DNA from: Magnetovibrio sp.
GTDB taxonomy: Bacteria > Pseudomonadota > Alphaproteobacteria > Rhodospirillales > Casp-alpha2
Reading direction: 5' to 3'
Assembly: GCA_002721825.1 (NCBI GenBank)
Contig: PBLS01000043.1
Span: 43,360-107,359, forward strand
Length of the DNA: 64,000 nt
Shown here: one piece after another, positions 2,077-37,034 of the stretch
Layout: each line of letters starts with the position of its first letter
Position numbering within the stretch: position 1 is the stretch's first letter
Position numbers and translations under genes: made by a program
The notes under the pieces: model-generated
Told to the model about the DNA's origin: nothing
Seen by the model: only the letters and a program-made list of their open reading frames with translations
Databases searched by the model: none

Positions 2077-2840
2077 TAATAAGTTTCCCAAATTGGATCA
2101 TTCTTAAGCGCATCTTCGACCAATTTCACGTCTTCTATACTGTCTACTGAAAAATAGGGGGCTGGTTTTATAAGCGCCATACGCTGTTTAAAACCATTAT
2201 CGCAAATCCTATTAGAGTCACATGCTTCTGCTATCTCCAAGGGGCTCTCAGGCTGGCTTGTGAACCATTTTAGAAATTTCCAGCGAAACCCAAAAATACC
2301 ACCAACTCGCTTTGCGCCTAATTCAGGCGAAAATGATTTGCTGTACGGAATGGGGCTGCGAGAAGTGTATAGAATATCGTTATTCTTGTCGTGGGCAATT
2401 TTAACGATGTCCGGATTTAGATATAGCGATTCGTCGGTTATTGGCACTGCTAGCATTGTACCAGGGACCTTATCATCTTGTTCAAAGGGCGCAACCACGG
2501 CCTCGATCATGTCGGGGGTCATTAAAGGTTCATCGCCTTGTACACAGACCACGATATCATTGTCCGCTAGGCTAATACCACATTTCTCTGCTGCTTCTGC
2601 AACTCTGTCGAGAGCACGGGTGTGAGTATTTGCTGTCATAATTACCGGGAACTTTTTTTCTTCTCCAAACACACGAATTTCTTCGTCGCAGGTCGCCAGG
2701 AAGTACCCATCCCACCGATTGTAAAGTTGCCCACGTAAAAAACAATGCTCTATAAGCGGCCGGCCAGCGATAGGATGAAGGGGTTTGCCCGGAAACCGGC
2801 TAGCGGCCATTCGCGCAGGAACAATTCCAATTATTTTCAT
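2076..2840 (-). CDS. KdsB-family cytidylyltransferase (CMP-octulosonate/ulosonate synthetase paralog)
   Basis: IVPARMAASRFPGKPL, VCVQGDEP, and YTSRSPIP ... SPLEIAE ... VDSIEDV line up along the whole length with the E. coli KdsB pattern as I recall it. Confidence 0.8.
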   Translation of the reverse strand: MKIIGIVPARMAASRFPGKPLHPIAGRPLIEHCFLRGQLYNRWDGYFLATCDEEIRVFGEEKKFPVIMTANTHTRALDRVAEAAEKCGISLADNDIVVCVQGDEPLMTPDMIEAVVAPFEQDDKVPGTMLAVPITDESLYLNPDIVKIAHDKNNDILYTSRSPIPYSKSFSPELGAKRVGGIFGFRWKFLKWFTSQPESPLEIAEACDSNRICDNGFKQRMALIKPAPYFSVDSIEDVKLVEDALKNDPIWETY

Positions 2841-8138: not shown

Positions 8139-8951
8139 TTAATATTTATAAAATCTTTGTAGTACAGACATGCTTTTATAAATATTTTTCATTGGATCGT
8201 CTGCCTCGAGCATTCGTTGTTCAACTGATACGAACCGATCGTAACGAATGCGCCGAAGCTGAGCACCAAGGAAACGATGGTCGACAAGACCTGATTGGCC
8301 TAACTCAGTAAGTCCAGGTTCATTCGCGTGATAATGAACCAGCTGGTTAGCGCAGTCCTCAAAGACGTCACTCGAAACCTCATTATTCTCGACTAGAGCC
8401 TTAGCGTCGATTTGGATTTTTAATGCTGGGTGATTTATTTGAGTTACTATTGCTTTGGCATCGTAAACAGAATTTATGAAGTCAGTGTCTTTTTTTCCCA
8501 GAGGTTCAAAGCATAAACAGGTACCATGGTCTTCCGTCTTGCGAACATACTCTTCAACAAATGATATAGCTATATTCAACGCATCTTTTTGGTCTAATAT
8601 CCCGCGTTTTCGGCCGCTACCATAAATGAGTGTGTGTCCCCCCAAGTCGCGACAAACACTGGAGAGATGAACAAGAAAGTCAAGAGATTTAGCGCGGACA
8701 TTGGAATTTTTAAACATGCCGAGTAGAGGCTGGTCAAAAAACAAAGAATGTAACCCCACAACTGATAGGCCACAGGCTTCAATCTCATGACGATAAGCAT
8801 CGACCTGCCTAAGGCTCAGCTTTTCCCACGTGTTAGGCCATATTCGGCTAGGAGCAACCTCAAGACCTTCAAACCCAATTTCAGAGAGCATACTGAGCTC
8901 GTAACTATGTTTAAATGCTGGAAGTGCTATGTTTGATATAGAAAGTTTAAT
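8139..8951 (-). CDS. sugar-phosphate isomerase/epimerase (xylose-isomerase-like TIM barrel); probable non-canonical ATT start
   Basis: The track ORF is 8139..8891. The frame stays open upstream to 8993 and encodes IKLSISNIALPAFKHSYELS. This looks like the conserved first beta-strand of the family, and the only start-like codons there are ATT or ATC. Confidence 0.6.
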   Translation of the reverse strand: MKLSISNIALPAFKHSYELSMLSEIGFEGLEVAPSRIWPNTWEKLSLRQVDAYRHEIEACGLSVVGLHSLFFDQPLLGMFKNSNVRAKSLDFLVHLSSVCRDLGGHTLIYGSGRKRGILDQKDALNIAISFVEEYVRKTEDHGTCLCFEPLGKKDTDFINSVYDAKAIVTQINHPALKIQIDAKALVENNEVSSDVFEDCANQLVHYHANEPGLTELGQSGLVDHRFLGAQLRRIRYDRFVSVEQRMLEADDPMKNIYKSMSVLQRFYKY

Positions 8952-9000: not shown

Positions 9001-9732
9001 CTAGTATTTGGTTGTTTTGCTGGTGTTTGTGCTGAGGATTGCAATATGCTTTAGGACCGGATGAATAACGAAATAAGGTTTTCTTGCATTTGAGCGTTGG
9101 CTAACTTTGTTTTTAAAGCCACCGTTTTGGGCCCAATGCGTTAGTCCTTCCATCAACAAATCGGCACGAATAGAAGCATCATACAGATTATCAATGTCAA
9201 GCCCCGGCGGGGGTGCAGGGTAAACCTTTTGTGCGACGATATCCCCGGTGTCGATACCCGAAGATAGTAGAATTAACGAGACGCCGCAGTCGGCACGTTC
9301 CAGGAGGCTATAATATACTGTAGTACTTCCCGGGTAATCTGGAAGTAAACCTGCATGGGCATGCAAGAGTGGGATTTTGAGTGACAAGACAGGGGTTTTT
9401 ACAATTTCGCCGCCGACTCCAGAATAAATAATTAAAGAGGGTTTTGCTGCCATTATTATGGTTACTACCTCTGGGTGATTTATGCCCAATTGGGGGACTT
9501 CGTGTATAACATCGGAGATATCAGATAGTGTGTTTCGAAGAGGCTCATGTGGGTCGAAGATGGGCACATTATTGGAGGATGGACCGTCAGCGTTGAGCGA
9601 GACCTCTTGGTCTTCGGCACCGTGGAGTACACTGCACCCAATTTTGATGCCACCATTACGTAAAGCTTGAGCATATGCCTTCGATCGACAGCTCGCATGC
9701 GCAAAAAATAAAACGTTTTTAAGTTTTAAAAT
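9001..9732 (-). CDS. formyltransferase-fold protein; probable non-canonical ATT start
   Basis: LHAHAGLLPDYPG and SSGIDTGDIVAQ resemble the Formyl_trans_N catalytic region. The track ORF starts at GTG 9567, but the frame is open to 9747 and encodes LKNVLFFAHASCRSKAYAQAL, a Rossmann beta1-alpha1. That stretch has no ATG, GTG or TTG. Confidence 0.5.
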   Translation of the reverse strand: MLKLKNVLFFAHASCRSKAYAQALRNGGIKIGCSVLHGAEDQEVSLNADGPSSNNVPIFDPHEPLRNTLSDISDVIHEVPQLGINHPEVVTIIMAAKPSLIIYSGVGGEIVKTPVLSLKIPLLHAHAGLLPDYPGSTTVYYSLLERADCGVSLILLSSGIDTGDIVAQKVYPAPPPGLDIDNLYDASIRADLLMEGLTHWAQNGGFKNKVSQRSNARKPYFVIHPVLKHIAILSTNTSKTTKY

Positions 9733-10319
9733 GTCACGCCTTTCTGATTACAGACTTTATCGACAAAGCGTAACTCGGCTTTAATCAATGCAGCTAACCA
9801 GCGTTGGTCACCTTGTTTTAATTGTGTCCGAAGTGCACAAAGCGTATCCATAACCTTTAAAAGCCCGTTTAGGTAACGTAAACTCTCGGACTGGACGATA
9901 GCGAAAGTTAAGACTTGCCCTAGTAAAAGGTAATTTCGTAAATTTTTATAATCTGTTTTATCTACGGCGCGCCAATCTGCCCCATAAGCGCTGTGTAGAT
10001 GCTTTGTGGTTTCGAATTTTTTAAGAATTTTCTCAAGATAATTTATGTTAGCAGGCGTCCCGTTCATCCCATTTTTGAAATCGTTGCATAACGTATGCAA
10101 AATAGATGTTGTTGTGTAAGGGGGATGCATACTTTCGTATTCTTGCCGCATAATTTTCAGTGTTGGTGTTTTGGGAGAGGGCAACTCGCCCAAAACATTG
10201 TATCGAGCTTGGTGCCACGCCTTTAGGAAGTGTGATCCGCCATATGGCGTATAGAAGTATGTATTGGGCTCTTCTAATATTGGGCCAGAGGCATATGGAT
10301 AACTTTCAACGTTTTTCAT
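9726..10319 (-). CDS. hypothetical protein
   Basis: 197-198 aa ORF in operon context (ATG at 10319 directly after TTG at 10322). I recognise no motif. Confidence 0.6.
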   Translation of the reverse strand: MKNVESYPYASGPILEEPNTYFYTPYGGSHFLKAWHQARYNVLGELPSPKTPTLKIMRQEYESMHPPYTTTSILHTLCNDFKNGMNGTPANINYLEKILKKFETTKHLHSAYGADWRAVDKTDYKNLRNYLLLGQVLTFAIVQSESLRYLNGLLKVMDTLCALRTQLKQGDQRWLAALIKAELRFVDKVCNQKGVTF

Positions 10320-10324
10320 CAAAA

Positions 10325-10840
10325 CTAGTCCCAGCCTACCATCTTAGCCACTGCTGAGACTGAGTCGTCAACAGAAATACCCTTTGAGGTATCTATAAAA
10401 AGATCCGGGTTCGGTGGAGACGGAAAATCGATATCGACGCCAACAACATTTTTTTCGAGCCCTTTTCGCGCAGCCTCATAAAGGCCTTTTGTATCACGGC
10501 GCTCAAGAACGCTCATCGGTGCATGCACGTGCACCTCATGATATTCACTGAACTCGGTCCTATTGGCGAGCAAAATTTTTGGAAAAATGCATAGGATGCA
10601 GCAAATAACATCGATTTTTTGTTTATCCAATAATCTGCATAACTCAACAATATGTTCTGCATTGCGATAGCGACCCCCGACAGTGTAGGCATCTGGCACG
10701 TGATTATGACGGAATACGCGACGAATTTCGTCCCCATCCAACAATACTGTTGCACGCTCAACACTCTTCCTTTTTTTGTACAGGTGTCGTCCGATTGTAG
10801 TCTTGCCAGCACCGGACATGCCTACTAACCATATCATCAT
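10325..10840 (-). CDS. APS-kinase-fold P-loop kinase; candidate cytidine-diphosphoramidate 3'-kinase (Cj1415-like)
   Basis: P-loop GMSGAGKTT and an RRDTKGLYEAARKG ... GVD segment typical of the CysC fold. It is 171 aa long. Its genomic context is the Cj1416, Cj1417 and Cj1418-type trio. Confidence 0.65.
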   Translation of the reverse strand: MMIWLVGMSGAGKTTIGRHLYKKRKSVERATVLLDGDEIRRVFRHNHVPDAYTVGGRYRNAEHIVELCRLLDKQKIDVICCILCIFPKILLANRTEFSEYHEVHVHAPMSVLERRDTKGLYEAARKGLEKNVVGVDIDFPSPPNPDLFIDTSKGISVDDSVSAVAKMVGWD

Positions 10841-10881: not shown

Positions 10882-12630
10882 CTATTGCCTGCTACGTAAA
10901 GCGGTTTGCCCAGCTTCACCAAAAGCCGCAATTATACGATCATCCGAGATTTCTGGAATTTCAGCCAATCTATTAGCTATGATTGGGAGAAAATTTTCAA
11001 CAACAGGATGAACTGGTTCGTAAATATTCTTCTGTTCAAATGGATCAGACACGATATTAAATAACTCAGGTCCAGCGGGGCTACAATGGTCGGTTGGGTC
11101 GAGAGTTTCTTTCCAAAGAAAGTTGAATTCTTTATTCCTGACCGCAGCATATATGGGCCGTTCAGTTAAAATACAGGACCCCCCATGGACCGTTTCAAGA
11201 ATGACTTCTGAGCGGTTTTTGACTGGCATGCTCGTTATTGGGGCTCCTTCCCATTTTGGATGTGATTCTATACCGGCCAATTGGGCCAAGGTTGGGCCTA
11301 GGTCGAGTAGGGTAACGAGGCTATCAATGGTACCGCCTTTGAGGCTGGGGTGATTAATAAGTAATGGAACACGTACATTGTGACTATAACAGCGAAAGTG
11401 ATGGCTAATATCGCCGTGTTCACCGAGCTCTTCCCCGTGATCTCCAAATACAACTACGATGGTATTTTCTCTCTTTCCAGATTTTTGAAGCGAGTCAATT
11501 ATGCGGCCCACCTGTTCGTCGACATAGCGAATGGAAGCATCGTACAAGGCCGACCAGTTTCGGAGTTCAGCGTCGGTTTCTGGACGTTTTTTTACTGCGA
11601 TTGAAATATCAATGTCACTAGGGTAACCCAAAGCTTCTAGATAGTGTTTAGTTTTCGAATACCAGGTTTTGCCGTAACCAGCACAATAGGGAACATGTGT
11701 ATCGAAAAAGTGTGCCCACATAATCCAAGGGCGTGAGCCGTCATACGCATGCATACGATGGCAGATACGGTCTGCCAGGTCTTTCCCATCAACATACCTT
11801 TTAAAACGCATATTACGGAGGCTCGCCCACTTTGGTGCTAGTTGCCTAAGTACCAGGTTGGATATCTGAAACACAAATTCATCAATCAGCTTTTTAGGGT
11901 GCCGCGCTAAGCGCCATTCGGCTCCGAGGTATTCATGTGGTTGAAATGGACGTTTAAAGTGGCGTTGTGTATAGGAGACTTGATCGCGTTCGAAGGCATT
12001 TCGGTGATTTGAGACAATAGCTTTGATTTTTTCAAAATTGTAACCATCATTAACAAATCTCGAATTTGGAAAATCACGTTTGTCCTCATGGTAGAACTTG
12101 ATACGTTGATTGCAGTAATTGTCGATCCAATCTAGAAGCCCACGAACAAAAGGAGCAACTTGAGCAGCCAGTTCAGAGCTTGAAAGTTTGCCGTTCTGAT
12201 ATGACTGGAGTTGTGATCGGAGGACAGGCTCTGCCGTTCCAACAAGGGAATTGAGCACAAACATGTACTCTAAATAATCTACCCCACTCTTGTAGCCAAA
12301 TAGTTCGCTAGCCCATTGAAAGGTCGATAGAACGTGAGATGTATAGTTGTGGCTGGAAAAATGGTGAAATATTGTCGGGGGCCGATTTACTACTCCCATA
12401 TCGTATCCACCATAAGATAACGGCCGGGTTGACGTCATCAATGAGTGCAGAGATGCTTGGGTAAATGCTGCTGTGCTTACCGCATTGGTACAGATAAGAG
12501 AGTTTTTCCGAAGCTTATCTAATGTTGGCGTTGTTGGCCTTTCGTATCCCAAGAAACTTGCTCGGTCAGCGCGAAAAGCGTCTACCGATAGCAAAAGAAT
12601 ATTGGGACGCTGAGAGTTTACGTTATCCAC
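10882..12630 (-). CDS. alkaline-phosphatase-superfamily (sulfatase-like) protein lacking the formylglycine motif
   Basis: NILLLSVDAFRAD and FGDHGEELGEHG are sulfatase-family metal-site motifs. Where C/S-x-P-x-R is expected, the sequence reads AAFTQASLHS (Thr57 at 12460-12462). Confidence 0.7.
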   Translation of the reverse strand: MDNVNSQRPNILLLSVDAFRADRASFLGYERPTTPTLDKLRKNSLICTNAVSTAAFTQASLHSLMTSTRPLSYGGYDMGVVNRPPTIFHHFSSHNYTSHVLSTFQWASELFGYKSGVDYLEYMFVLNSLVGTAEPVLRSQLQSYQNGKLSSSELAAQVAPFVRGLLDWIDNYCNQRIKFYHEDKRDFPNSRFVNDGYNFEKIKAIVSNHRNAFERDQVSYTQRHFKRPFQPHEYLGAEWRLARHPKKLIDEFVFQISNLVLRQLAPKWASLRNMRFKRYVDGKDLADRICHRMHAYDGSRPWIMWAHFFDTHVPYCAGYGKTWYSKTKHYLEALGYPSDIDISIAVKKRPETDAELRNWSALYDASIRYVDEQVGRIIDSLQKSGKRENTIVVVFGDHGEELGEHGDISHHFRCYSHNVRVPLLINHPSLKGGTIDSLVTLLDLGPTLAQLAGIESHPKWEGAPITSMPVKNRSEVILETVHGGSCILTERPIYAAVRNKEFNFLWKETLDPTDHCSPAGPELFNIVSDPFEQKNIYEPVHPVVENFLPIIANRLAEIPEISDDRIIAAFGEAGQTALRSRQ

Positions 12631-13414
12631 GAGCGCGAGAAGTGATCGAATTTAAATTGATGAAGGCCGATAGCGTTTGTGATTTTATCATGTCTTTGTA
12701 GAGTTGATAATCACCAAAAGTGTCTATTTCAAGCCATCCTCCATGGATCGGTACTGCAGTAACAGGAGTATCGTTTAGAATAATACGCATTAAGATTTCC
12801 GTCATGTAGAGGTTGTCGGCTGCAGCCAGCGAATTGGCCACCTGTCGTTCTGTTTTCCGAGCGCTAGAAAGAGCATCTATTCCATTACCGCGAAATCGCA
12901 TTAAACCTATATACTGCCCTTCAATTTCATTAAGGTTAGCAGGTTTGCGTCCAATTTCTTTTATATGGCCCTGACCATCGAGTTTAAGCGTTTCCGCATC
13001 TTTTATTGGTTCTTCGAATCTAGCGTCCCAAAGTTGACGCCAATTCTTGTCGATTACTACAGAGATGTCGTTTTTATGTCTGAGAAGAGATTGTACGACG
13101 GAAGGTTCGTAGACTATGTCGCTATAGCTTACAATGAAATCGTTGCCAAATTCATTGGCGACTAAAAACAAAGATTCGACCATATTCGTTTCAGCCCAGC
13201 GCTTATTTAAACGTATATCAATCCCTGGTATATCGATTTGTTCGGACTTGTAACCTGTTATAACCGTTATATCATTCAACCCGGATGCGCGGAGAGCTGT
13301 AATCTGCATGTAAAGGAGCGATATACCGCTGAGTTGGGTCAGGCATTTAGGAGCGCTGGAAGTTAAGGGGTTGAGGCGACGACCCCGCCCGGCTGCAAGG
13401 ATGAACACTTTCAT
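12623..13414 (-). CDS. nucleotidyltransferase; candidate CTP:phosphoglutamine cytidylyltransferase (Cj1416-like)
   Basis: ILAAGRGRRLNPLT signature of the NTP-transferase fold. It is 263 aa long. ATGA overlap with the upstream gene. Confidence 0.65.
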   Translation of the reverse strand: MKVFILAAGRGRRLNPLTSSAPKCLTQLSGISLLYMQITALRASGLNDITVITGYKSEQIDIPGIDIRLNKRWAETNMVESLFLVANEFGNDFIVSYSDIVYEPSVVQSLLRHKNDISVVIDKNWRQLWDARFEEPIKDAETLKLDGQGHIKEIGRKPANLNEIEGQYIGLMRFRGNGIDALSSARKTERQVANSLAAADNLYMTEILMRIILNDTPVTAVPIHGGWLEIDTFGDYQLYKDMIKSQTLSAFINLNSITSRARG

Positions 13415-14037
13415 GCCCAGAAAGCCCCGTGCGAAACTAGCTTACCAAATAATAGTCTGTCTTCAACTGGTGCGGGCGATCGCTCCGGGTGCCACATGAT
13501 GCAGGTTATAGGGTTTTCCCTATCAACCATTGCCTCAATGTAGCCTTTTTCGTCTGTTGCAATTGCTGTAAATTTATTCGGCAATTGATTAGCCCGAAGC
13601 CCCAAGGCATGAAAAGAGTTTACATGTGTAGCTTTGGGGTAAACTAGCCTACCGGGTCCATGGAAAAGTATCTTGTGAGTTGTCGCAATGTGGCCGGATA
13701 AATTCTCAAGTTTTGCACCAGCAAGCTGCGCACACATTTGCATGCCGCGGCAAATAGCCAGGACCGGCAATTTGGTAATGATTGCATGGGCTAATAACCG
13801 TTCTTCTTGATTGTCGCGTACTGGGCATTGGCCGTAGTCGTCACCTCCCGTCAATATCAATATATTGCATTTTTGCGCATCTAAGAAAGCTTCTGGGTCA
13901 TTAAGGACGTTTGGGATAATGATAGGCCAGGCCTCCCAGTGATTTAAAAGACGAATCCAATCGTGACTAATTGAGTCTCTAAGTTCGATGTAATCACTGG
14001 TTTCGGTAATACGTGGACTGATGGCTACTTTAATCAT
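13411..14037 (-). CDS. class I glutamine amidotransferase / peptidase C26; candidate gamma-glutamyl-CDP-amidate hydrolase (Cj1417-like)
   Basis: Nucleophile elbow LAICRGMQ and the His-Glu pair MWHPE. ATGA overlaps on both sides. Confidence 0.65.
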   Translation of the reverse strand: MIKVAISPRITETSDYIELRDSISHDWIRLLNHWEAWPIIIPNVLNDPEAFLDAQKCNILILTGGDDYGQCPVRDNQEERLLAHAIITKLPVLAICRGMQMCAQLAGAKLENLSGHIATTHKILFHGPGRLVYPKATHVNSFHALGLRANQLPNKFTAIATDEKGYIEAMVDRENPITCIMWHPERSPAPVEDRLLFGKLVSHGAFWA

Positions 14038-16424
14038 ATGCTGTAGTCGTGGGTTAAAATTCTACGAGAACTGCAATTCAATTCGACGGCTTCTGCTTTT
14101 GACAGCGAGCTAAAAAGCCGTTCGCCACAACCAATAGCTGCGGGCAAACTAAACTCTGCACATCGAATGGCCATGTGTGAGTTTGCGCCGCCGTACTTTG
14201 TAATCAAACCGGCTATTTTTCGAGAAAATATCCAGTCAAAACCTGGATCGGCACTTTCGATCATCACGATGCGCCCGTCGATATCGAGATCTTCTAGCCC
14301 TCCAATAAGGACTGTAGAAGCGGTGAGTGACTTATTTGTTATAAACGTTGGTTGCCCGATAGGAACCCGAATAACCAATATATCGTTTGGCTCCGTAATT
14401 AAATGTGGAAGCCGAACTGCGCGATGTATTTCATATTTTTTTTTGGCTTCCAATATTTCCCCTTTAGCTTCGGTTGGGTCCATACCATCCATGATGTAGT
14501 CGATAGGTAGGTAGGATAGATCCTCACGAGTAAGTCCTAAACGCTCTCCGTAACCAGTTAAGGCCCTTAGCAAATCACTAAGGCTGCGTGTAAACGCAAA
14601 CTTAGCGGCTTCGCGCGCCTTTATTGAGCTAGCGATATAATGGAGTAATTCCCGCGGTCCAAATTTAAATTGGGCTTCAGCTATTGCTACTTCCAGTGCC
14701 TTTAGTGTTTGACTATCAGGCTCATAATTAGTGCGTGTAATTTCTTGTTTAATTCTATCCCGGCCTAGAAATAGTGATGGGTTTTCATCATAGCGTGGAG
14801 AGTTAATGTCATACGAACCTGGTCGTAAATGGCCATATTTTTCTAAGAATACATTCATAGATTGCCGTTGATGGGTCAAGTGATTCATACTAACTGCCAC
14901 ATCCGTGGCAATTGTGCGAATGCCGCGCATGAAACAGTCTGATGTATTTACCGAAATCACTCCACGTTTTACCAGGGAACGAAGTAGTTGAACGCCTATG
15001 AATCCATGACGTGCTAACATTGCGAATGGCAAGGTTCCATTATTGCGGCAGTTTTCGATAGTTTGCCGCATTTCTGATAGTTTTGTTGGTGGTTCGGCAC
15101 TCAAAAGGGCATTGGCTTTATTAAGAAGTCCGTCAATTGGAGCGATCTTGCCAATAACGAGCTTTTCAGTGAGTTGGTGGAGATGGCTCTCCATTGCATC
15201 TATTTCATTTTCCGCTAAAGAGAAACGCGACAATAAATTCTGAGCGGATGGCCAATCAAAATCGCGGCATGTCACGGCTATAGTGAACTCAAGTTTATCG
15301 TGGTGATCACGGTTATCTGCGAGAAACAACAATTGATTGGATACCAGGCGGTCACTGATATTTGCATCAAAATTATTTGGTAAAAATGAATTTAAGCTAA
15401 GACGAACATCTATGTACGGTCGTCCACACCATTCAGCCATGAGCGGTTGGTCGACTAATCGATATCCCATCTGTTGCCGGGCAACAGCCCAAACGCTATC
15501 TGTAATCAACGTTTTGTACAATGATGTAGCGAGAGGTCGTGGAGCGGATCCAATCATCTCCGCGGGATTCCAGTCGGTCATTTCTCCATACACGGTTGTT
15601 TTTCCGGCCAACCCATCGGCTTTGCGCATGGATTTTTCTATTCTCGCGTATCCTTTACTTATAACGTTTGCGATGTCTTTTTCGGAGACAAGACCCCAGC
15701 GCCCGTGAGCGGCAATAGGCCGGACTTGAAATATATAAATTTGGTCGTTTTCCGTAATGCAGAATTCTAGATCTAAGGTGGAGATGCCGACTATATCTTC
15801 AATATTTCGGACACTTTCGAGTAGACTCTGAAACCGTTCTGAATGCAGAACTGCAGTATGTTCTCGGTGAATATAGATCGACTTACTTTCAGCACCACCT
15901 GTGACTGTGTCAGTTCGGCCCGTCATATCATCGTAGTTTACAACGTAATAAGGGCTGCCATTATTTAGGTCTCTGGTCATTACAACACCGGCTATAACGA
16001 CGTCTTCAACCATTGGTTGGATCAAAACTTGATCATTATCATGGCGTTGCTTATAGCTCTCAAAAACATTCTCAATAGCTAAAGCAAGAGGTTCGTGTTC
16101 TGGTAGAACGTTTATAAGACTTAGGTTTGCGCCCGCTTGCGATTCTATAATGCTATCTTCACCTACGGCACTCGAACGAACAGCCAAGTTTTTCCCCTCA
16201 AATTTTTTTATGATAGCGTCAAGAAGTGACTGCTTATCCGCCAACCATTCAGCAGCTTGAACGACAAATTGTTCACATAGTTTTGCACCTCGTATACGTC
16301 CTTTCAGAGCTTCGAGGTTGTTTGCTTTTGTAGAAAACTTGAACACTTCTCTATTATTTAATTTTCGGTGAGAATTGATAGGTTTATCTAATTTGTGTGT
16401 TCCGATGTTCATTACACGATTCAC
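14034..16424 (-). CDS. PEP-utilising / PPDK-type three-domain enzyme; candidate L-glutamine kinase (Cj1418-like)
   Basis: N-terminal ATP-grasp signature LAVRSSAVGEDS. C-terminal swivelling phosphohistidine motif GGANSHMAIRCAEFSLPAAIG, with the His codon at 14175-14177. It is 796 aa long. GTGA overlap with the ABC gene (alternative ATG at 16412). Confidence 0.65.
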   Translation of the reverse strand: MNRVMNIGTHKLDKPINSHRKLNNREVFKFSTKANNLEALKGRIRGAKLCEQFVVQAAEWLADKQSLLDAIIKKFEGKNLAVRSSAVGEDSIIESQAGANLSLINVLPEHEPLALAIENVFESYKQRHDNDQVLIQPMVEDVVIAGVVMTRDLNNGSPYYVVNYDDMTGRTDTVTGGAESKSIYIHREHTAVLHSERFQSLLESVRNIEDIVGISTLDLEFCITENDQIYIFQVRPIAAHGRWGLVSEKDIANVISKGYARIEKSMRKADGLAGKTTVYGEMTDWNPAEMIGSAPRPLATSLYKTLITDSVWAVARQQMGYRLVDQPLMAEWCGRPYIDVRLSLNSFLPNNFDANISDRLVSNQLLFLADNRDHHDKLEFTIAVTCRDFDWPSAQNLLSRFSLAENEIDAMESHLHQLTEKLVIGKIAPIDGLLNKANALLSAEPPTKLSEMRQTIENCRNNGTLPFAMLARHGFIGVQLLRSLVKRGVISVNTSDCFMRGIRTIATDVAVSMNHLTHQRQSMNVFLEKYGHLRPGSYDINSPRYDENPSLFLGRDRIKQEITRTNYEPDSQTLKALEVAIAEAQFKFGPRELLHYIASSIKAREAAKFAFTRSLSDLLRALTGYGERLGLTREDLSYLPIDYIMDGMDPTEAKGEILEAKKKYEIHRAVRLPHLITEPNDILVIRVPIGQPTFITNKSLTASTVLIGGLEDLDIDGRIVMIESADPGFDWIFSRKIAGLITKYGGANSHMAIRCAEFSLPAAIGCGERLFSSLSKAEAVELNCSSRRILTHDYSI

Positions 16425-18178
16425 GAGATAGGCATAGATTCGAGGGATTTAAAATGGCCACCGGATTTTATTAATTCCGCGTAAGTTCCATGTTCCACAA
16501 TGTGGCCATTCTTAAAAACGTAAATCTTATCCGCTCGGCGCAGGGTAGAAGGACGATGTGAAATAATGATGATAGTCATTCTATGCGCGATGCTTTCAAT
16601 CGCGCTCTGAATAAGGTGTGCTGACTCTGCGTCAAGGGCACTTGTTGCCTCATCTAGGAATAGGACATCTGGTTGGCGCACTAAAGCGCGGGCAAGCGAT
16701 AGACGTTGTTTCTGTCCCCCCGATAGTCGCACGCCGCCTTCGCCCAGGTTTGTCTCCATACCCTCAGGCAACTCCTCAACGACTTCGGAGAAGTGAGCCA
16801 ATTGCATACTTTCGTTTATTAACATCTGATCAACAGTGCTGTTGGCAAATAAAATATTGTTGCGAACAGAGTCGTTGAATATAACAATATCTTGTGAAAC
16901 GTAACCAATTCGTTGTCGCCAAGTTGCTAAATTAATATCGGTTATCGAGATCCCGTCTATTGATAAACGACCAGAGTTTGGCTTGTGTAGGCCAATTAAA
17001 AGATCAACTAGCGTAGATTTTCCGGATCCTGAGCGGCCGACAATTGCAACAATTTGGTTTTTGCGGATTGAGAAAGAAATGTCTTTCAACACTGGCTTTG
17101 TCGAGGTCGGATACGAAAAAGTAACGTCTTCAAACTCTATTTTTTGCTCGAACTGCCTAAGTGATACCCCGGTGGGGTTCATGTCTTCACGGGCGCCTCT
17201 ACTTTCATTGAGGAGCTGGTCTACCGAAGATAAGCCCGCCGTATAGGCTGTATAGCCTTGGGAAAATTGCTGAAATTGAGCAATTCGAGGCGCTATTCTT
17301 GCCATGAAAATAAGAAACACTAAAGTCGATGATACTGGGATAGTATAAATCTCTGTTGCCACACCCAGAACTACGGCGAGCAAAATCACTGGGAGTGACT
17401 GGACTATGTAATAGACACGCATGTGATTTACTTCCGTATTAACAGTAGCTTCATAGACACCTGAAACGTGTTTATCTATCCGCTTTGTTGCTAGGCTTTC
17501 AACTGCGTTCGATTTTATCAACTTAGCGCCTTTTAAGAGCTCAATGGCATGAAAAAGTAGTTTTGTATTTTGTTCTGTACTGAACTCGCCAAGCCATTTT
17601 GCACGTTTATGGAGTGGTCGAACCACAATTGCTACAAGAACTGCAAAGGCAATTGATATGATCAGTAAATTGGGAGAAAGAAAAAATGATATTCCAATAA
17701 AGAGCAGAACTTGTGCTAGGACGCCGGCCGATAAGATTTCGAACCTTAAGGCATGGCTGGCGCGGTGTGTTTCACTAATTAGCCGGTTAAAAATGTCTCC
17801 GTGTGATTGCTCTGTGAGATATAACCACTGAGATCGAAACAGATTCTCTACCATGGTCTCTCGCACTTTTCGAGCATATCCCTGCTGTGCTTTAATTAAA
17901 AGTACATTATGTGTGTAACTAAGTGCTTGCGAGGAAAGTATGATGATAGGGATGCAAATCAACAACCATACAACGGTAACAGGTATGTGAAGAAAATGAA
18001 AAACTGCCATAATGAGCTCAAAAAATTTATCGCCAGCTTCGCTTTTCTCATCTGACATAAGACGCAGTAATGGAATGAATAGCGTAAGGCCGATACCCTC
18101 AGCAGCGCCCGCGAAAACACTCATTGCGAGCGTGGCACGTGTACCAGGTAGTCGACCAAGTGTTGAGAAAAGCCGCAT
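16421..18178 (-). CDS. ABC exporter, fused permease/ATPase (MsbA-type half transporter)
   Basis: Hydrophobic N-terminal half. Walker A GRSGSGKST, signature LSGGQKQRLSLARAL, Walker B VLFLDEATSALD. Confidence 0.9.
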   Translation of the reverse strand: MRLFSTLGRLPGTRATLAMSVFAGAAEGIGLTLFIPLLRLMSDEKSEAGDKFFELIMAVFHFLHIPVTVVWLLICIPIIILSSQALSYTHNVLLIKAQQGYARKVRETMVENLFRSQWLYLTEQSHGDIFNRLISETHRASHALRFEILSAGVLAQVLLFIGISFFLSPNLLIISIAFAVLVAIVVRPLHKRAKWLGEFSTEQNTKLLFHAIELLKGAKLIKSNAVESLATKRIDKHVSGVYEATVNTEVNHMRVYYIVQSLPVILLAVVLGVATEIYTIPVSSTLVFLIFMARIAPRIAQFQQFSQGYTAYTAGLSSVDQLLNESRGAREDMNPTGVSLRQFEQKIEFEDVTFSYPTSTKPVLKDISFSIRKNQIVAIVGRSGSGKSTLVDLLIGLHKPNSGRLSIDGISITDINLATWRQRIGYVSQDIVIFNDSVRNNILFANSTVDQMLINESMQLAHFSEVVEELPEGMETNLGEGGVRLSGGQKQRLSLARALVRQPDVLFLDEATSALDAESAHLIQSAIESIAHRMTIIIISHRPSTLRRADKIYVFKNGHIVEHGTYAELIKSGGHFKSLESMPIS

Positions 18179-18957: not shown

Positions 18958-20841
18958 TCATACATTTAGGACCGATGGACCTTCAGACGGTGCAACCTGT
19001 GTCATGATTAAGTCAGCAATTTTTTGATCGACATCTAGTGCATGTGCGCCAAAGAACCGCGACCAGTATGGTTCCTGCTGCATCATTTTGGGAAAATTTG
19101 AGACTAAGCTTTCAGGGTCCTCGTGGGCTAATACGGCGGCCTCCAAATCCTTGGCGTTGCTAGAAATCGGTTTTTCAAAATCTTGTGAACCCAGGATACC
19201 CATGAGGGTATTGGAGTCGTACTCGGGCTCATGGATAATTACTGGTCGACCGAGGGCAATCGTTTGATAGATGCAGGACGATAAATTAGTGATTAACAGG
19301 TCGTGGGATTTCATCGCATCAACAAACGTACCAGAGGTATTCAGAGCGATGGATCCTGTTACCCCCATACGTTTCATTAGGTCAGGCAAGTATTCATCTA
19401 AATTTTGTGGCCCCGCGTGTTGGCGATAGGTGAAAGAGTATCCCTTGGGGACAAGGTTTCGGACAACTGTTAGAAAATCTATCATGTACGTATCGACGTT
19501 GTGCACGCGCTTTACCGTATGGGTTAATCCGGCGCCAAAACCAATTATCAGAACCCGTTTTCTGGTTGCGGGCCGTGTTTTTGCGCCTGTAACTGCGGCC
19601 ATGTGTGAGATCAAGGTGCTGCCAATAGACGGACACCGTTCGGCGTCCTTTTCGGCGATGTGCGTGCCGTACGGATGCTCGTCGCCATGGCAAATCCATT
19701 TAAGATTGTGGTGGAGTTTGCTGAGAGTATTCAAATTCAATGGTAGCGAATTCATTCCGTGTCCCATGAAAACGACTTGCGTAGAAGTCTGCGGCGCAAG
19801 GTGGATAATTGCTCTTGCCGAGGCGCTGACCCCGTTAATGACGACGAGTTTTGGGCGAAGCGCGCGTAGCATGCGTTTTGCTTGCAGTATTTTAACAACA
19901 TGCATTATTAAGCGTGTGCCCATAGATAGAGATAGCAGTCGCGAAAAGTAGCGAACGTAGTCGATTCCATCATAAACAAAAGGATTTTTGTCTTGATTTC
20001 GGGAGAGGGCTGCGGCCCGCTGGCGAAGCTTATGAATGGCACGCAGATATTGGAGCGAAAACAATGGCGCAAAATGATCGAATCGAATTGCAATCGCATT
20101 ATGGCCCGGACGATCCGTGTAGACATCAATTTCAGGCCGCTCCGAAAGGAATTTGATCAGCCGAGATGCGCCGGGATGATAAAACAGATATACGCCAGGT
20201 GTGTTGCCTGAAAAATAAGAGCGGAGCCGTGGCAGGATATAGCTTGGACGAAAGCCACCAGCATAGCTTTTCAGGACTTGGCCCAAACGTGTGAATGAAT
20301 AATTTGCGCCCCATTGTTTCACACTGTTTGATACTTGCAGTTCACGTAGGGGGACGCCTCGCGCCTTCGAAAAATCCACCAAGATTGTCCTTCGTGGCAT
20401 GCCTAGGGGATGACAGCGAAAAATACTCATTCCATCGATCATGTCACATACAATTTCTCTCAGGTTGGGACATTCATTTATTATTCGTTGACAAATTGTT
20501 CCGAATCGAACCATATGCGCCATCGCGAAATCTTGTGCGAGCTCAGGAGATACGAATTCACCAATTGATATACCATCGACAAGCACAGGATCATGCTCGC
20601 CGTCTTTGAACCAAGTCGTGGCAAAGTTTTCAGCGAAATCATCGATCTTCGCCGCCTCTGCTTGGGTCACGCGCGCTTCCGCATATTCAACACGTACGCC
20701 GTCGCGCTTAAGAGCATCCAGTATCGTTCTGTCGATCGTTTGAACAGGTCTAAAATAGGCAACTAAATCACCTGACATCGGTTTATCAGGTTGATTCACC
20801 AAATCATCAAGAAGGGTGTTTTCAATCAAAAAAAGTCGCAT
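18958..20841 (-). CDS. large orphan protein; candidate glycan phospho-group/sugar transferase
   Basis: 627-aa ORF. The C-terminal segment DLLITNLSSCIYQTIALGRPVIIHEP loosely resembles the TagF/CDP-glycerol phosphotransferase motif LITDYSS ... KPII. Otherwise I do not recognise it. Confidence 0.35.
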   Translation of the reverse strand: MRLFLIENTLLDDLVNQPDKPMSGDLVAYFRPVQTIDRTILDALKRDGVRVEYAEARVTQAEAAKIDDFAENFATTWFKDGEHDPVLVDGISIGEFVSPELAQDFAMAHMVRFGTICQRIINECPNLREIVCDMIDGMSIFRCHPLGMPRRTILVDFSKARGVPLRELQVSNSVKQWGANYSFTRLGQVLKSYAGGFRPSYILPRLRSYFSGNTPGVYLFYHPGASRLIKFLSERPEIDVYTDRPGHNAIAIRFDHFAPLFSLQYLRAIHKLRQRAAALSRNQDKNPFVYDGIDYVRYFSRLLSLSMGTRLIMHVVKILQAKRMLRALRPKLVVINGVSASARAIIHLAPQTSTQVVFMGHGMNSLPLNLNTLSKLHHNLKWICHGDEHPYGTHIAEKDAERCPSIGSTLISHMAAVTGAKTRPATRKRVLIIGFGAGLTHTVKRVHNVDTYMIDFLTVVRNLVPKGYSFTYRQHAGPQNLDEYLPDLMKRMGVTGSIALNTSGTFVDAMKSHDLLITNLSSCIYQTIALGRPVIIHEPEYDSNTLMGILGSQDFEKPISSNAKDLEAAVLAHEDPESLVSNFPKMMQQEPYWSRFFGAHALDVDQKIADLIMTQVAPSEGPSVLNV

Positions 20842-20940: not shown

Positions 20941-22965
20941 CTAGGCGTAATCCATGGAGCGATTATATTTGTTAGGCCGTATGCGGACGAAAAACTTGCT
21001 TCGGACGGCCTTGTCTTGGTCATCAAAGGTCCGAAATAACTGTTTTAATTCGTCTTTTTGCTGAGAGTTGAACGCAAACATCAACGGAATACCTTCCGGC
21101 TCTTCGTAATCGGTCAGCGATGCATTGTAGTTCAATGATTGCCACTTTACGAAATCGTACTTGAAGGTATCGACGATATCCTTCTCCACTTCATCATTAT
21201 TAAGGCGAGTAAGGCGAATATGTTTCATGCATCGTATGATTTCATCCACTTCGGTGTCAAAATGGATACCGCTGGTTAACATGAACTGTTTCGTTTGTTC
21301 ACAGGCATAGTTCAGAACGCTCTCGTAGAAATCCGCGAGATTCCCTAAAGCCATGTGGATGACATTGAACCCAATTTTCCGCTCGTTGATTTTCTCCCGT
21401 TGTTGCGAATCCTCCCAGAATGCTCTCATATCTTCAGGGCTATCAAAAAGTTCTTCACGTGTCATACGGTCGAAATCATCGAAATATTCTTTCGCACGAG
21501 TTGGAGCCTTGTCTCTATTTTCGAACAAATGCATGATCCAGTCGAAAATAGATAGATTTCGCCCCTTGAGAAAACGCCGGAGCATAAGAAAATTACGTTT
21601 GAAGTAAAAAATATAGATGAAAAAGTAGATGGATCTCGCACGATAATATTCGTCTTCAGAAAAAGTATTTGTTCCTATACAAACTTTTTCAATCTCATAA
21701 GAAGAAAATTCAGTAAAATCGGAGAACGCAGCTTCAGAGAACCGATACCGAATTTTCATATTATATTTGTCTTGAAAATTTTTGTCTTCGAATGGGATAC
21801 CCCAAAAAATCATCATCGTTTGGACAGTGCCTTCTGTCGCGCCAAAGTCATCAATCGTCTGACGCATACCTGAAATAAAGGATTCGAATGTCTCTTCAGG
21901 CATCGGAATTATAATAGCCGTATCCGTACTGTGGTCGTACTTGTCCTCGCTTAATTTTTCAAAAAATAATTCAGTTTCATTTTTGCTTGGTTTGACTCGT
22001 TTAATGATTTCTAGCGTCTTTTCATTTGTCGATTGAAAGTATAACCCAATTCTTACTAAACCATTCGAGTTGTAGACGGCGTCCATGAACGTACGGGACG
22101 GGTTTTTTGCCGTGCTAACGTTTAACTGTACCGGCCACCCAGTATCTTTCCGCGATTTTGAAAGGTATTCTAAAATCTGTACATCACGTTTGAGGATCCC
22201 AAAATTTGAATCTGTAATACTTAAATAAGCGTGTTCGGAACCCTTGGAACGGAAATAATTAATTTCTTCGATCACACGGTCGAAGGACATAGAGTATACT
22301 TTTTGATAATACGTCTGTGCTTCATGGCAGAATTGACAGGAGTACGGACAGCCACGAGTTGTTTGTAGCATTGGTTTGCTCAGTATAAATTCATCTAAAG
22401 CACCGGAAAGAATTGGCGAGGGTATTGTTTCATTTATATCCCGAATGCGTGCCATTTCATTGCGGCTGATAACCTTTTGATGTTCGTCACACCAGAAATC
22501 GAAACCGTTAATCTCCACGTCACGTTTTTGAATTATACGGCCATCTTTCGACATATAAGCTTTCAAGAATTGATGGAGCGCTTCTTCGCCCTCTCCATGA
22601 AGGTAAAAATCAACATAGCGCTTCCGGTCTTTCCAAAACTCGTTTAAATTTGCCTTATGCAATGGATAGTTGGGGCCTCCCTGAATTGTTACGACGGAGG
22701 GGTTTTGGGCTTTGGCATACTGGAATACTGTCCCAGCTAGTTGCTCGTTCCACATATAATTCGAAAGACACAAAATATCAGGCATCTTTTCTTGAATTGC
22801 AGCTAATATTTTTTCGACATGGACAAATAATTCGATGTCTATTTCATTATCAAGATAATGATCAGCATAGGCTTTGAGATAACCAATGTTTAACGGGAAC
22901 GAGTTAATCTCGCTACCCGGCGTTTCATAGCCGAGATGTCCTATATAAATTGTGAGCTTTCTCAT
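20941..22965 (-). CDS. B12-binding-domain radical SAM enzyme (class B type)
   Basis: N-terminal Rossmann-like region (ILCLSNYMW ... VVTIQGGPN) followed by RGCPYSCQFCHE (CxxxCxxC). Confidence 0.75.
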   Translation of the reverse strand: MRKLTIYIGHLGYETPGSEINSFPLNIGYLKAYADHYLDNEIDIELFVHVEKILAAIQEKMPDILCLSNYMWNEQLAGTVFQYAKAQNPSVVTIQGGPNYPLHKANLNEFWKDRKRYVDFYLHGEGEEALHQFLKAYMSKDGRIIQKRDVEINGFDFWCDEHQKVISRNEMARIRDINETIPSPILSGALDEFILSKPMLQTTRGCPYSCQFCHEAQTYYQKVYSMSFDRVIEEINYFRSKGSEHAYLSITDSNFGILKRDVQILEYLSKSRKDTGWPVQLNVSTAKNPSRTFMDAVYNSNGLVRIGLYFQSTNEKTLEIIKRVKPSKNETELFFEKLSEDKYDHSTDTAIIIPMPEETFESFISGMRQTIDDFGATEGTVQTMMIFWGIPFEDKNFQDKYNMKIRYRFSEAAFSDFTEFSSYEIEKVCIGTNTFSEDEYYRARSIYFFIYIFYFKRNFLMLRRFLKGRNLSIFDWIMHLFENRDKAPTRAKEYFDDFDRMTREELFDSPEDMRAFWEDSQQREKINERKIGFNVIHMALGNLADFYESVLNYACEQTKQFMLTSGIHFDTEVDEIIRCMKHIRLTRLNNDEVEKDIVDTFKYDFVKWQSLNYNASLTDYEEPEGIPLMFAFNSQQKDELKQLFRTFDDQDKAVRSKFFVRIRPNKYNRSMDYA

Positions 22966-23043
22966 ACTCTAGTTTCCCCTATGAGTCGGCATTCTGAATA
23001 ACTGAACCCCATGAGCTAAAACAAATAAGGGTTCTGAGTTTAT

Positions 23044-30078: not shown

Positions 30079-30084
30079 GTTAAA

Positions 30085-30474
30085 TTATTTTTCTTGTGAC
30101 GTGTTTGCGACGAAAGCCGCGAAGGCTTGCAACGTTGCTTCGTCAAGCCATGCTACAAGGGTTTGTTCCTCATCTTTGAGATAGTGCTCAAATTGGGCTT
30201 CTCGACCGGCCTCGACAAGTAAGACATAAAATCGACCTGCTTCGTTACGCGTCAACGCCGGCCGTAATCCCTTTGCCGGGAGGCGGCCATTAAGCGAGGG
30301 GGTCGCATAATATCCAAAGTTCTTTCGCGCCACATCGAATTCGGTTCCTGAATCGGTTGCGAACGTTAATTGCTCGTCTGGATCGAGAAAAACAAGACCC
30401 ATGTCACTCAGAGTAATGGTGCCAGTTTTACCGACATTGAAGGTTCGTGGTGGCCAGTTTCGCTTAACCCTCAT
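30085..30474 (-). CDS. hypothetical protein
   Basis: 129-aa ORF with an ATGA overlap to the upstream gene. I recognise no motif. Confidence 0.6.
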   Translation of the reverse strand: MRVKRNWPPRTFNVGKTGTITLSDMGLVFLDPDEQLTFATDSGTEFDVARKNFGYYATPSLNGRLPAKGLRPALTRNEAGRFYVLLVEAGREAQFEHYLKDEEQTLVAWLDEATLQAFAAFVANTSQEK

Positions 30475-37025: not shown

Positions 37026-37034
37026 GAAAATTTC

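Follow-up and report, generated by a model that had tools for sequence, protein, structure and literature searches.

The window, a 64,000-nucleotide stretch of a Magnetovibrio sp. contig, carries on its minus strand a block of genes which is headed by a fused ABC exporter and runs through counterparts of the Campylobacter jejuni genes Cj1418, Cj1417 and Cj1416 to the gene for a sulfatase-fold protein, here called SULF, which is followed by a Cj1415-like kinase gene (Table 1). An earlier note on this DNA described SULF as a 582-amino acid protein which bears particular superfamily motifs and overlaps the Cj1416-like gene by 8 nt, and this description holds: the open reading frame has the length claimed, the motifs LLLSVDAFRAD, AAFTQASLHS and GDHGEELGEHG occupy residues 12-22, 54-63 and 396-406, and the overlap is borne out by direct reading, with the GTG start of SULF at 12630-12628 and the TAA stop of the Cj1416-like gene at 12625-12623. 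Upstream of the conserved RPN motif there is no start other than this GTG; the same junctions at two other SULF loci, L003 and L102, are 4-nt overlaps. Downstream of the kinase gene lies orf198, for which Pfam and NCBIfam scans gave no match, but which has homologues in L008, L012, L018 and L097, and one in L102 that forms a fusion with an SGNH-like protein.

Table 1. Features of the SULF gene and its neighbourhood, in window coordinates
Feature	Position	Strand	Basis
SULF gene (582-aa soluble sulfatase-fold protein, alkaline-phosphatase superfamily)	10882..12630	-	ORF; Pfam PF00884, 135 bits; AF2 pLDDT 93.1
8-nt overlap GTGGATAA, SULF start codon over stop of Cj1416-like gene (translational coupling)	12623..12630	-	Sequence read directly
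Mostly helical insert of ~200 aa, clade-specific, probable active-site cap (residues ~103-301)	11728..12324	-	AF2 helices 127-295; length comparison
Thr57 codon, predicted catalytic nucleophile where formylglycine Cys/Ser is expected	12460..12462	-	Aligned to Cys of CAPSR/CAASR in 6hhm, 6hr5
Asp17 codon, predicted metal ligand; second sulfatase Asp is Ala18 here	12580..12582	-	Invariant, 26-member alignment
Asp397-His398 codons, DHG metal-binding motif	11437..11442	-	Invariant; aligned to sulfatase SDHG and EptA/MCR profiles
His410 codon, 13 residues past Asp397	11401..11403	-	Invariant (26-member and 81-sequence alignments)
His312 codon, within invariant D-T-H-x-P	11695..11697	-	Aligned to H-x-P His of choline sulfatase
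Cj1416-like nucleotidyltransferase (CTP:phosphoglutamine cytidylyltransferase-like)	12623..13414	-	NTP_transf_3; syntenic in 16-17 family loci
Cj1417-like gamma-glutamyl-CDP-amidate hydrolase	13411..14037	-	NF045546 best match, E 9e-25, below cut-off; GATase/Peptidase_C26
Cj1418-like L-glutamine kinase (PRK05849)	14034..16424	-	NF004508, 842 bits vs cut-off 501; E 3.5e-253
Cj1415-like 3'-kinase (APS-kinase fold, PRK05541)	10325..10840	-	NF004041, 138 bits vs cut-off 127; PF01583
MsbA/HepA-like fused ABC exporter, head of block	16421..18178	-	Pfam/NCBIfam; in 16/26 family loci
AP_endonuc_2 (xylose-isomerase-like TIM barrel) protein	8139..8891	-	PF01261, 81 bits; frequent SULF partner
orf198, uncharacterised domain family after 3'-kinase gene	9726..10322	-	Homologues in other SULF loci
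orf627, near-orphan, GT-B-like fold, other candidate transferase in window	18958..20841	-	AF2 and Foldseek

By sequence and predicted structure SULF belongs with the sulfatases. It matches the Pfam Sulfatase family with an E value of 3.9e-39, its best sequence matches are S1 sulfatases including choline sulfatase (E 4e-20 to 1e-17), and the 50 best Foldseek matches of its AF2 model (pTM 0.92) are almost all S1 sulfatases (E about 3e-18 for the best), together with phosphonate monoester hydrolases; in the NCBIfam scan no model reached its cut-off, the best being an arylsulfatase model at 112 bits against 481. The two-domain fold is common to SULF and the formylglycine-dependent S1 enzymes (the Ensifer meliloti choline sulfatase BetC, 6fny and 6g60, and the arylsulfatases), as are the N-terminal Asp, the DHG motif, the His of H-x-P and a C-terminal SGSH_C-like subdomain. 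The TM-score against S1 sulfatases is nonetheless only about 0.5 because SULF carries an additional helical insert of some 200 residues; the insert region measures 198-208 aa in family members, whereas other sulfatase-like proteins of the Thr type have a median of 52 aa there, and it is probably a cap over the active site. SULF is a soluble, cytoplasmic protein: it has no transmembrane segment or signal peptide, its Kyte-Doolittle maximum over 19 residues is 1.05, and its first beta strand begins only 8 residues after the protein start.

The residue at the nucleophile position separates SULF from the formylglycine enzymes. In phmmer alignments with three solved sulfatases, 6hhm (CAPSR), 6hr5 (CAASR) and 4upi (x-G-P-S-R), Thr57 takes the place of the formylglycine residue, while Ala59 is paired with Pro/Ala and Leu61 with Arg, so that SULF reads T-Q-A-S-L. 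Of the 26 members of the family alignment, 24 have Thr here and two have Ser, and 22/22 family sequences of an 81-sequence alignment have one or the other; the motif C/S-x-P/A-x-R is absent at the aligned position from every one of the 26 and from the 21 family sequences taken from the loci, and neither set has the Arg. The replacement of the formylglycine motif by Thr57, which the earlier note had proposed from an alignment by eye, is thus confirmed by all of these alignments; only its emphasis on the Thr needs correcting, since Thr is common there among Pfam Sulfatase proteins. It occupies the position in most of the 59 unrelated sulfatase-like control proteins in the 81-sequence alignment, which rules out the Thr itself as the novelty; what is new is the SULF clade and its synteny. 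That SULF is a genuine formylglycine-dependent sulfatase we consider exceedingly improbable in spite of its Pfam match and the sulfatases that head its PDB matches, given the missing motif, the other residues that stand in place of its Arg, of the second Asp and of the Lys that binds sulfate, and a cytoplasmic location within a phosphoramidate operon; moreover, Thr is not convertible to formylglycine. A true sulfatase with its motif elsewhere is likewise ruled out, as no C/S-x-P-x-R aligns near the nucleophile position.

The remainder of the predicted site is well conserved in part and remodelled in part. Asp17, Asp397 and His398 are kept across the family, while the second metal-site Asp is replaced by Ala18 (all family members in the 81-sequence alignment read D-A or D-T here); the conserved residues H307, D310, H312 and H410 are candidates for a second metal site. 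His410 and His411 fall where choline sulfatase and 6hhm carry Lys, His411 lying on the sulfate-binding Lys of choline sulfatase, and signature II of the family reads G-Y-x-T-x-x-L-S-T, with no match to the sulfatase G-K-x-H. Compared to the S1 enzymes, then, SULF has Thr57 for formylglycine, lacks the Pro and Arg of the motif as well as the second Asp of the metal site, and has no sulfate-binding Lys; it differs further in its helical insert, its cytoplasmic location and its phosphoramidate operon. We regard it as a probable metallo-enzyme of the sulfatase lineage of the alkaline-phosphatase superfamily, with Thr57 as the predicted nucleophile.

The conserved site of SULF recalls the phosphoethanolamine transferases EptA/MCR-1 and the LtaS proteins, which likewise have Thr at the nucleophile position, a metal site of D/E and D-H, and two His. 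The DHGE-LGE-G...H signature of SULF aligns to the EptA/MCR profiles of NCBIfam, which cover residues 9-69 and 359-410 (the MCR-1 profile aligns residues 9-60 to its positions 237-288, and EptA profiles align residues 362-410), and the spacing of D397 and H410 is presumably that of D465 and H478 in MCR-1. In contrast to SULF, which is soluble and for which a nucleotide donor is proposed, the EptA/MCR-1 and LtaS enzymes have an N-terminal membrane domain, are active on the far side of the membrane from the cytoplasm and draw on lipid donors; in both sequence and structure SULF is closer to the sulfatases than to them, and it lies far below the cut-offs of their families (47.8 bits against 561 for the best EptA model, 41.9 against 970 for LtaS).

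The genomic context of SULF points to the phosphoramidate pathway. The clade, defined by its Thr/Ser nucleophile, its D17/D397/H398/H312/H410 site and its ~200-aa helical insert, comprises over 120 clusters, most of them from Rhodospirillales, at 40-54% identity, and has a member in a cultivable Magnetospirillum (P0112 in Magnetospirillum gryphiswaldense). Of 21 species-representative loci, 10 have the full set of four Cj1415-18-like genes within 10 kb of SULF and 16 have at least a Cj1416-like or Cj1415-like (or variant donor) gene there, whereas no such gene accompanies other sulfatase-like proteins of the Thr type at any of their 59 loci; the co-occurrence with the pathway which had been set beforehand as a test is therefore both strong and specific, and metagenomic contexts of SULF agree with the species-representative synteny. 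The position of SULF between the Cj1416-like and Cj1415-like genes, for which the earlier note had seen no counterpart in C. jejuni, is real and not peculiar to this genome: it is the usual arrangement across the loci of the clade. At four divergent family loci (L022, L024, L026, L027) none of the Cj1415-18 genes is found within 10 kb. SULF is the constant partner of three different donor modules: Cj1418, 1417, 1416 and 1415; an NTP-transferase with an AsnB-like and an APS-kinase-like protein (L101, L025, L023); and a fusion of pyruvate kinase, PUA and ATP-sulfurylase domains (L022, L026). The converse does not apply: of 401 genomes of the window's phylum, a set which contained no Rhodospirillales-type SULF carriers, 14 have a Cj1418-like gene and only genome G000 has SULF, so that the pathway does not depend on it.

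Since the SULF family is found almost always in phosphoramidate donor gene sets and has Thr in place of formylglycine, it probably transfers or cleaves a phosphoramidate group and not sulfate. Two further roles are less probable. SULF could act in the acceptor branch, where a co-conserved module of AP_endonuc_2, SDR, FkbM, Gfo-Idh-MocA and KdsB-like proteins would make a sugar or cyclitol phosphate and SULF would be the phosphatase or phosphomutase that works on it, and it does co-occur with AP_endonuc_2 homologues at 50-57% identity in 14-15 family loci, with two GFO genes in 13 and with an uncharacterised 536-aa protein (u536) in 12; in L022 the sugar module accompanies SULF with none of the Cj1415-18-like genes. 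Yet the genes that SULF directly adjoins are those of the nucleotidyltransferase or the kinase and not the sugar module, and L101, L021 and L026 combine SULF with a donor module in the absence of the GFO/u536 module, so that we consider this role unlikely. Less likely still is the clearance of by-products, in which SULF would dephosphorylate 3',5'-cytidine bisphosphate (pCp) or act as a nucleotide pyrophosphatase, the CysQ- or NPP-like step of a PAPS-like cycle. The 3'-kinase gene constantly adjoins SULF, a partial match to Pfam Phosphodiest (PF01663, 34 bits) covers residues 363-399 only, and Thr-type NPP enzymes cleave nucleotide phosphoanhydrides, all of which would suit such a step; but a protein of 582 aa that devotes 200 of them to a cap and has many invariant residues seems elaborate for it, L005 and L006 have a His_Phos_1 phosphatase beside the kinase in addition to SULF, and SULF is missing from C. 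jejuni and from 13 further genomes that are Cj1418-positive.

The reading towards which we lean, while giving it somewhat less than even confidence, is that SULF transfers a phosphoramidyl or phospho group from a 3'-phospho-CDP donor by way of a covalent Thr57 intermediate. The donor would be a PAPS-like 3'-phospho-cytidine-5'-diphosphoramidate made by the operon partners or, at variant loci, another nucleotide-activated phospho donor. A metal held by Asp17, Asp397 and His398 would activate Thr57, which would attack the terminal phosphorus and expel the cytidine nucleotide, leaving a Thr57-O-phosphoramidyl enzyme from which the group would pass to the hydroxyl of a small, presumably sugar-like acceptor under the 200-aa helical cap. 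This would be the covalent ping-pong mechanism of EptA/MCR-1 and LtaS, yet in a soluble and nucleotide-dependent form in which we infer that transfer prevails over hydrolysis. What the sequence, the model and the loci show of this is a sulfatase fold with Thr where the nucleophile belongs, a conserved site, a protein of the cytoplasm and a specific synteny with the genes for donor synthesis; the donor, the covalent intermediate, the transfer and the acceptor are proposals. The reading has to contend with the fact that the closest solved relatives, the S1 sulfatases, are all hydrolases; moreover, those Thr/Ser members of the superfamily that are known as soluble proteins of the cytoplasm act as hydrolases or mutases, and its known transferases are membrane-anchored.

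A second difficulty is posed by proteins of the sulfotransferase fold, which are by nature the users of PAPS-like donors. Such proteins (c3, a TPR-Sulfotransfer_3 protein, and the short forms c16 and c27) share operons and a proposed role with SULF, from which they differ in fold and in that they would transfer the group directly in-line without a covalent intermediate. They occur in 11 of the 26 family loci, where SULF would have to be a second transferase or have another role. Because of these candidate transferases, hydrolysis is nearly as likely as transfer: SULF may be a phosphoramidate-branch hydrolase, taking the place of the sulfatase in a sulfation-like toolkit, that removes or trims phosphoramidate esters, cleaves the P-N bond, or destroys surplus or mis-made donor as an editing enzyme while other proteins transfer, a role which we hold to be possible but doubtful. 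Sulfatases, phosphonate monoester hydrolases and choline sulfatase are its nearest relatives in sequence and structure, phosphoramidate esters have a charge of -1 like sulfate esters, and a co-opted sulfatase fold would fit a pathway in which APS-kinase and sulfotransferase folds appear already to have been co-opted. On the other hand, there is no obvious benefit in undoing the product with an enzyme that is coupled to donor synthesis and kept across three donor modules, and in eight full-flank loci, this window included, the 3'-kinase is encoded with no sulfotransferase-fold gene nearby and SULF is the sole recognised transferase candidate.

The window has no sulfotransferase-fold gene, and genome G000, which is 85% complete, has no c3-, c16- or c27-type sulfotransferase. 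The C. jejuni MeOPN transferases Cj1421 and Cj1422 share with SULF the clustering with the same four donor genes and the proposed reaction, in which (methyl)phosphoramidate is transferred from the Cj1415-18 product, but they are non-homologous to it, without any relation in sequence, and the transferase role is putative on both sides. NF058596 and DUF2972, which we take to be the families of Cj1421/Cj1422, gave no match to SULF in the Pfam and NCBIfam scans and none in G000, and searches of 10 Cj1418-positive genomes with NF058596 and PF11186 gave none either, the genome searches having been run without a positive control. Within the window, orf627 or the orf198 family could alternatively supply the transferase. 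The AF2 model of orf627 is of moderate quality (pLDDT 65, pTM 0.62) and leads in Foldseek to UDP-GlcNAc 2-epimerases and GT4 proteins; the protein has one close homologue, and the only family loci with homologues are L009 and, with weak matches, L023 and L025. As a homologue of Cj1421/22 or of sulfotransferases it was rejected, having no Pfam match, a single close relative and a GT-B fold instead. The pathway's transfer step has yet to be reconstituted (PMC12409886), and cj1416-18 are present without cj1421/22 in some Campylobacter (PMC3907429). Literature searches gave no relevant report that links a sulfatase to MeOPN or to cytidine diphosphoramidate.

The biochemistry of phosphoramidate decoration of glycans is known only as far as the donor, the product of Cj1415-18. 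For the step that uses this donor, the SULF family offers a soluble candidate with a well-folded model (pLDDT 93) and an obvious residue to test in Thr57, and it marks gene clusters which show P-N chemistry to be widespread outside Campylobacter; its loci also suggest two alternative routes to a nucleotide-activated phosphoramidate, and SULF would be a clear case of a scaffold of the sulfatase lineage that has switched both its nucleophile and its class of substrate. A broader reading, again rather improbable in our estimate, is that SULF is the founder of a third class of phosphoramidate (phospho-group) transferase, one without homology to the others, soluble, nucleotide-dependent and acting through a covalent Thr-phosphoramidyl enzyme, with which the whole sulfation toolkit would have been re-used for P-N chemistry. 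If this is true, environmental bacteria would have re-used sulfurylase-like, APS-kinase-like, sulfotransferase-like and sulfatase-like folds for this purpose, and the re-use would span two further donor routes, through an AsnB-like amidotransferase and a pyruvate-kinase/ATP-sulfurylase fusion.

The 582-residue sulfatase-fold protein (SULF) matches the Pfam Sulfatase family PF00884 (E 3.9e-39) and falls below every NCBIfam cut-off, scoring 112 bits against the 481 set for arylsulfatase and lying far under the cut-offs of the EptA, LtaS and YejM models. The earlier note had assigned Thr57 to the nucleophile position by eye; because phmmer alignments with solved sulfatases place this residue exactly in the column of the formylglycine Cys of C-A-P-S-R (6hhm) and C-A-A-S-R (6hr5), and in the same column with 4upi, both that alignment and the codon (12460-12462) are correct. 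Ala59 stands at the Pro/Ala position and Leu61 at the Arg position of the sulfatase motif. SULF thus shares the fold of the S1 sulfatases without having the motif that defines them, and it is very improbable that it is a true sulfatase. The AlphaFold model is confident (pLDDT 93.1, pTM 0.92), and its nearest PDB structures are S1 sulfatases, choline sulfatase first (E ~3e-18), with TM-scores of only ~0.5 because of a mostly helical insert at residues ~103-301. The GTG at 12630 is the sole start ahead of the conserved R-P-N-I-L strand. The protein is cytoplasmic, since it lacks any hydrophobic segment (its 19-residue Kyte-Doolittle score peaks at 1.05) and a signal peptide would not fit.

A word-seeded search turned up full-length relatives, 40-54% identical, in more than 120 clusters; they are named, where at all, only as "sulfatase-like hydrolase/transferase" or "arylsulfatase A-like", and among their sources are Magnetospirillum gryphiswaldense, M. 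sulfuroxidans and numerous Rhodospirillales MAGs. In a 26-member family alignment residue 57 is Thr in 24 and Ser in 2. D17, D397, H398, H312 (in D-T-H-x-P) and H410 do not vary, and neither do many of the Arg, His and Trp positions. The helical insert is clade-specific, measuring 198-208 residues in the family against a median of 52 in other sulfatase-like proteins. Thr at the nucleophile position is itself common within Pfam Sulfatase, since most of 59 more distant sulfatase-like proteins from the same scan also have it (for example T-L-P-S-H or T-K-P-A-T); the novelty therefore lies in the SULF clade, its insert and its gene context. Sulfatase-like proteins with a DHGEELG motif occur in Acidobacteriota, Planctomycetota and other phyla (loci L028-L086), most with Thr rather than Cys or Ser, and the Thr-type proteins among them form a large, little-studied branch of the family. 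Two divergent SULF paralogues (L024 and L027), 36% identical to the window protein, lie ~8 kb apart on contig CALKND010000036.1 among MFS, PhyH, TPR-GT41 and TPR-methyltransferase genes and have no Cj1415-18-like gene beside them, so that some branches of the family may have other roles.

Features of the window and of compared loci (L-numbers)
Feature	Coordinates	Strand	Remarks
SULF	10882-12630	-	ORF, 582 aa
PRK05849/Cj1418-like protein			SULF neighbour; 842 bits, over cut-off
Gamma-glutamyl-CDP-amidate-hydrolase-like GATase			SULF neighbour
NTP_transf_3 protein			SULF neighbour
PRK05541 APS-kinase-like protein			SULF neighbour; 138 bits, over cut-off
orf198	9726-10322	-	Domain family next after the kinase gene; candidate transferase
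orf627	18958-20841	-	Near-orphan candidate transferase; GT-B-like model
Two large B12-binding radical SAM proteins and a SPASM radical SAM protein	20941-24909 and 922-2091	-	Flank the phosphoramidate block
Two AsnB-like amidotransferases, NeuB-family synthase, DegT aminotransferase, further Gfo/Idh/MocA protein, UDP-glucose/GDP-mannose dehydrogenase	28222-43981	-
Pyruvate-kinase/PUA_2/ATP-sulfurylase fusion	L003:7872-10004; L022:7851-10013; L026:11402-13582
Variant donor module with an AsnB-like glutamine amidotransferase	L101:11740-15031		Amidotransferase ~656 aa; also in L025, L023, L011
orf198 domain/SGNH-like protein	L102:12285-14096; L097:6639-7781; L098:13173-14405		The two fused in L102

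The locus scan took one genome per species and yielded 21 loci of the family proper (full-length hits at E <= 1e-104) and 59 of other sulfatase-like proteins; neighbours within 10 kb were counted by tblastn with the window proteins. All four Cj1415-18-like genes accompany SULF in 10 of the 21 and at least the Cj1416-like or Cj1415-like gene in 16, several of the remaining loci being short contigs; both counts are zero among the 59 others. The linkage is seen again in five metagenomic contexts whose Pfam annotation was precomputed. The co-occurrence with the pathway to which the earlier note had looked thus holds in one direction, but its converse fails: a Cj1418-like gene is found in 14 of 401 genomes of the window's phylum, and of these only the window's own genome, G000, has SULF, which is absent from the loci of the other 13. 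Carriers of SULF are mostly Rhodospirillales, with single MAGs of Nitrospinota, Solibacteraceae and Caulobacteraceae.

Profile scores bear out the donor-type neighbours claimed for SULF. The sequence itself shows its 8-nt overlap with the upstream Cj1416-like gene, the SULF GTG lying over the TAA stop (GTGGATAA); L003 and L102 have 4-nt overlaps at the corresponding junctions. Its position between the Cj1416-like and Cj1415-like genes does lack a counterpart in C. jejuni, where cj1415-cj1418 are described as a single locus (PMC3907429) and SULF is absent, but it is no oddity. The commonest order is ABC exporter, 1418, 1417, 1416, SULF, 1415, AP_endonuc_2, SDR, FkbM methyltransferase, unknown 536-aa protein and two Gfo/Idh/MocA oxidoreductases, so the apparent insertion is simply how this horizontally shared block is normally arranged. 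Given the AsnB-like, NeuB-family, DegT and other genes of 28222-43981, the block lies inside a large surface-glycan region. Relatives of the B12-type radical SAM proteins also occur in L003, L009, L015 and L023.

Even in loci that lack the glutamine kinase and hydrolase genes, SULF has a nucleotidyltransferase gene and one of kinase type as neighbours. The module of L101/L010, L025 and L023 consists of a divergent NTP_transf_3, an AsnB-like amidotransferase and an APS-kinase-like gene; in L101, and also in L025, L023 and L011, the AsnB-like gene lies between the other two, in place of Cj1418/1417, with SULF and AP_endonuc_2 kept. A fusion of ~720 residues (pyruvate-kinase barrel, PUA_2 and ATP-sulfurylase) directly adjoins SULF. 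In L022 and L026 no other donor-type gene lies within 10 kb, while in L003, L015, L016 and L018 the fusion accompanies the full Cj1415-18-like set. We infer that the variant modules are alternative syntheses of a nucleotide-activated phospho(ramidate) donor, the fusion perhaps providing a third, which would lead to a nucleotide-activated phosphoramidate or sulfate-like donor. The genes for the Gfo/Idh/MocA and 536-aa proteins are missing from L101, L021 and L026; SULF tracks the donor module more faithfully than the sugar-modifying module.

The conserved site (Asp17, with the second sulfatase Asp replaced by Ala, Thr57, Asp397-His398, His312 and His410) matches the Thr-type phosphoryl-transfer members of the superfamily (EptA/MCR, LtaS, NPP) rather than sulfatases, and to that extent the earlier assignment to the phosphoryl-transfer type stands. 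The Asp-to-His spacing of 13 residues is that of MCR-1 D465/H478, and His411, beside His410, aligns with the sulfate-binding Lys of choline sulfatase. Phosphoramidate monoesters resemble sulfate esters in bearing a single negative charge, which would make a sulfatase-derived pocket a sensible starting point. On the strength of this site and this likeness of charge, it is tentatively proposed that SULF is a transferase in which Thr57 would attack 3'-phospho-CDP-amidate at its terminal phosphorus to give a covalent phosphoramidyl-Thr enzyme, from which the group would pass to an acceptor hydroxyl beneath the helical cap. A hydrolase, acting on that intermediate, on a phosphoramidate ester or on the donor, is nearly as likely, and sequence cannot tell the two apart. 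A phosphatase or mutase of the acceptor branch is doubtful, and by-product clearance more doubtful still.

Transfer by SULF must also be weighed against other candidates, because the donor is PAPS-like and sulfotransferase-fold proteins would be natural transferases for it. Among the loci of the window's phylum that lack SULF, 7 of 14 have a protein combining TPR and Sulfotransfer_3 (group c3; 40-41 bits, over cut-off), in one to three paralogues each; these proteins are candidate phosphoramidate transferases using a PAPS-like donor. Members in L088, L092, L093 and L095-L098 have 560-1170 residues, with an N-terminal TPR and a C-terminal Sulfotransfer_3 domain, and in Cj1418-positive genomes of this phylum two or three adjacent paralogues often lie by Cj1416-18-like genes. 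Of 26 SULF loci, 11 have short proteins of the sulfotransferase fold: c16 matches Sulfotransfer_1, c27 matches Sulfotransfer_3 and has a PKTGTTW loop, and one protein belongs to c3. Eight full-flank SULF loci (the window, L003, L009, L011, L016, L023, L025 and L102) have the 3'-kinase and no such gene. Other contigs of G000 carry ordinary sulfotransferase genes, none resembling c3, c16 or c27 (the top c3 score is 80 bits, whereas members reach 500-760). A search for NF058596 and DUF2972, the transferase families of C. jejuni, in which no positive control matched, found neither in G000 (85% complete) nor in 10 Cj1418-positive genomes. Of 5.8 billion proteins a single one is closely homologous to the orf627 product, which has distant homologues in L009, L023 and L025; its moderate AF2 model (pLDDT 65) matches GT-B enzymes (UDP-GlcNAc 2-epimerases, GT4). 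Loci with and without SULF alike have, next after the 3'-kinase gene, the orf198 domain and an SGNH/GDSL-like protein of ~400 aa; both may belong to the core phosphoramidate system.

The transfer step of the phosphoramidate pathway was still uncharacterised in 2025 (PMC12409886), and a literature search found no paper linking a sulfatase-fold protein to this pathway. SULF is unrelated to the C. jejuni transferases Cj1421/22; it has catalytic residues in common with transferases of the EptA/LtaS type, but their membrane domain is missing from it and its scores stay below those of their families. We would class it as a variant inside the alkaline-phosphatase superfamily, and as a well-defined, testable family prediction rather than a new kind of system.
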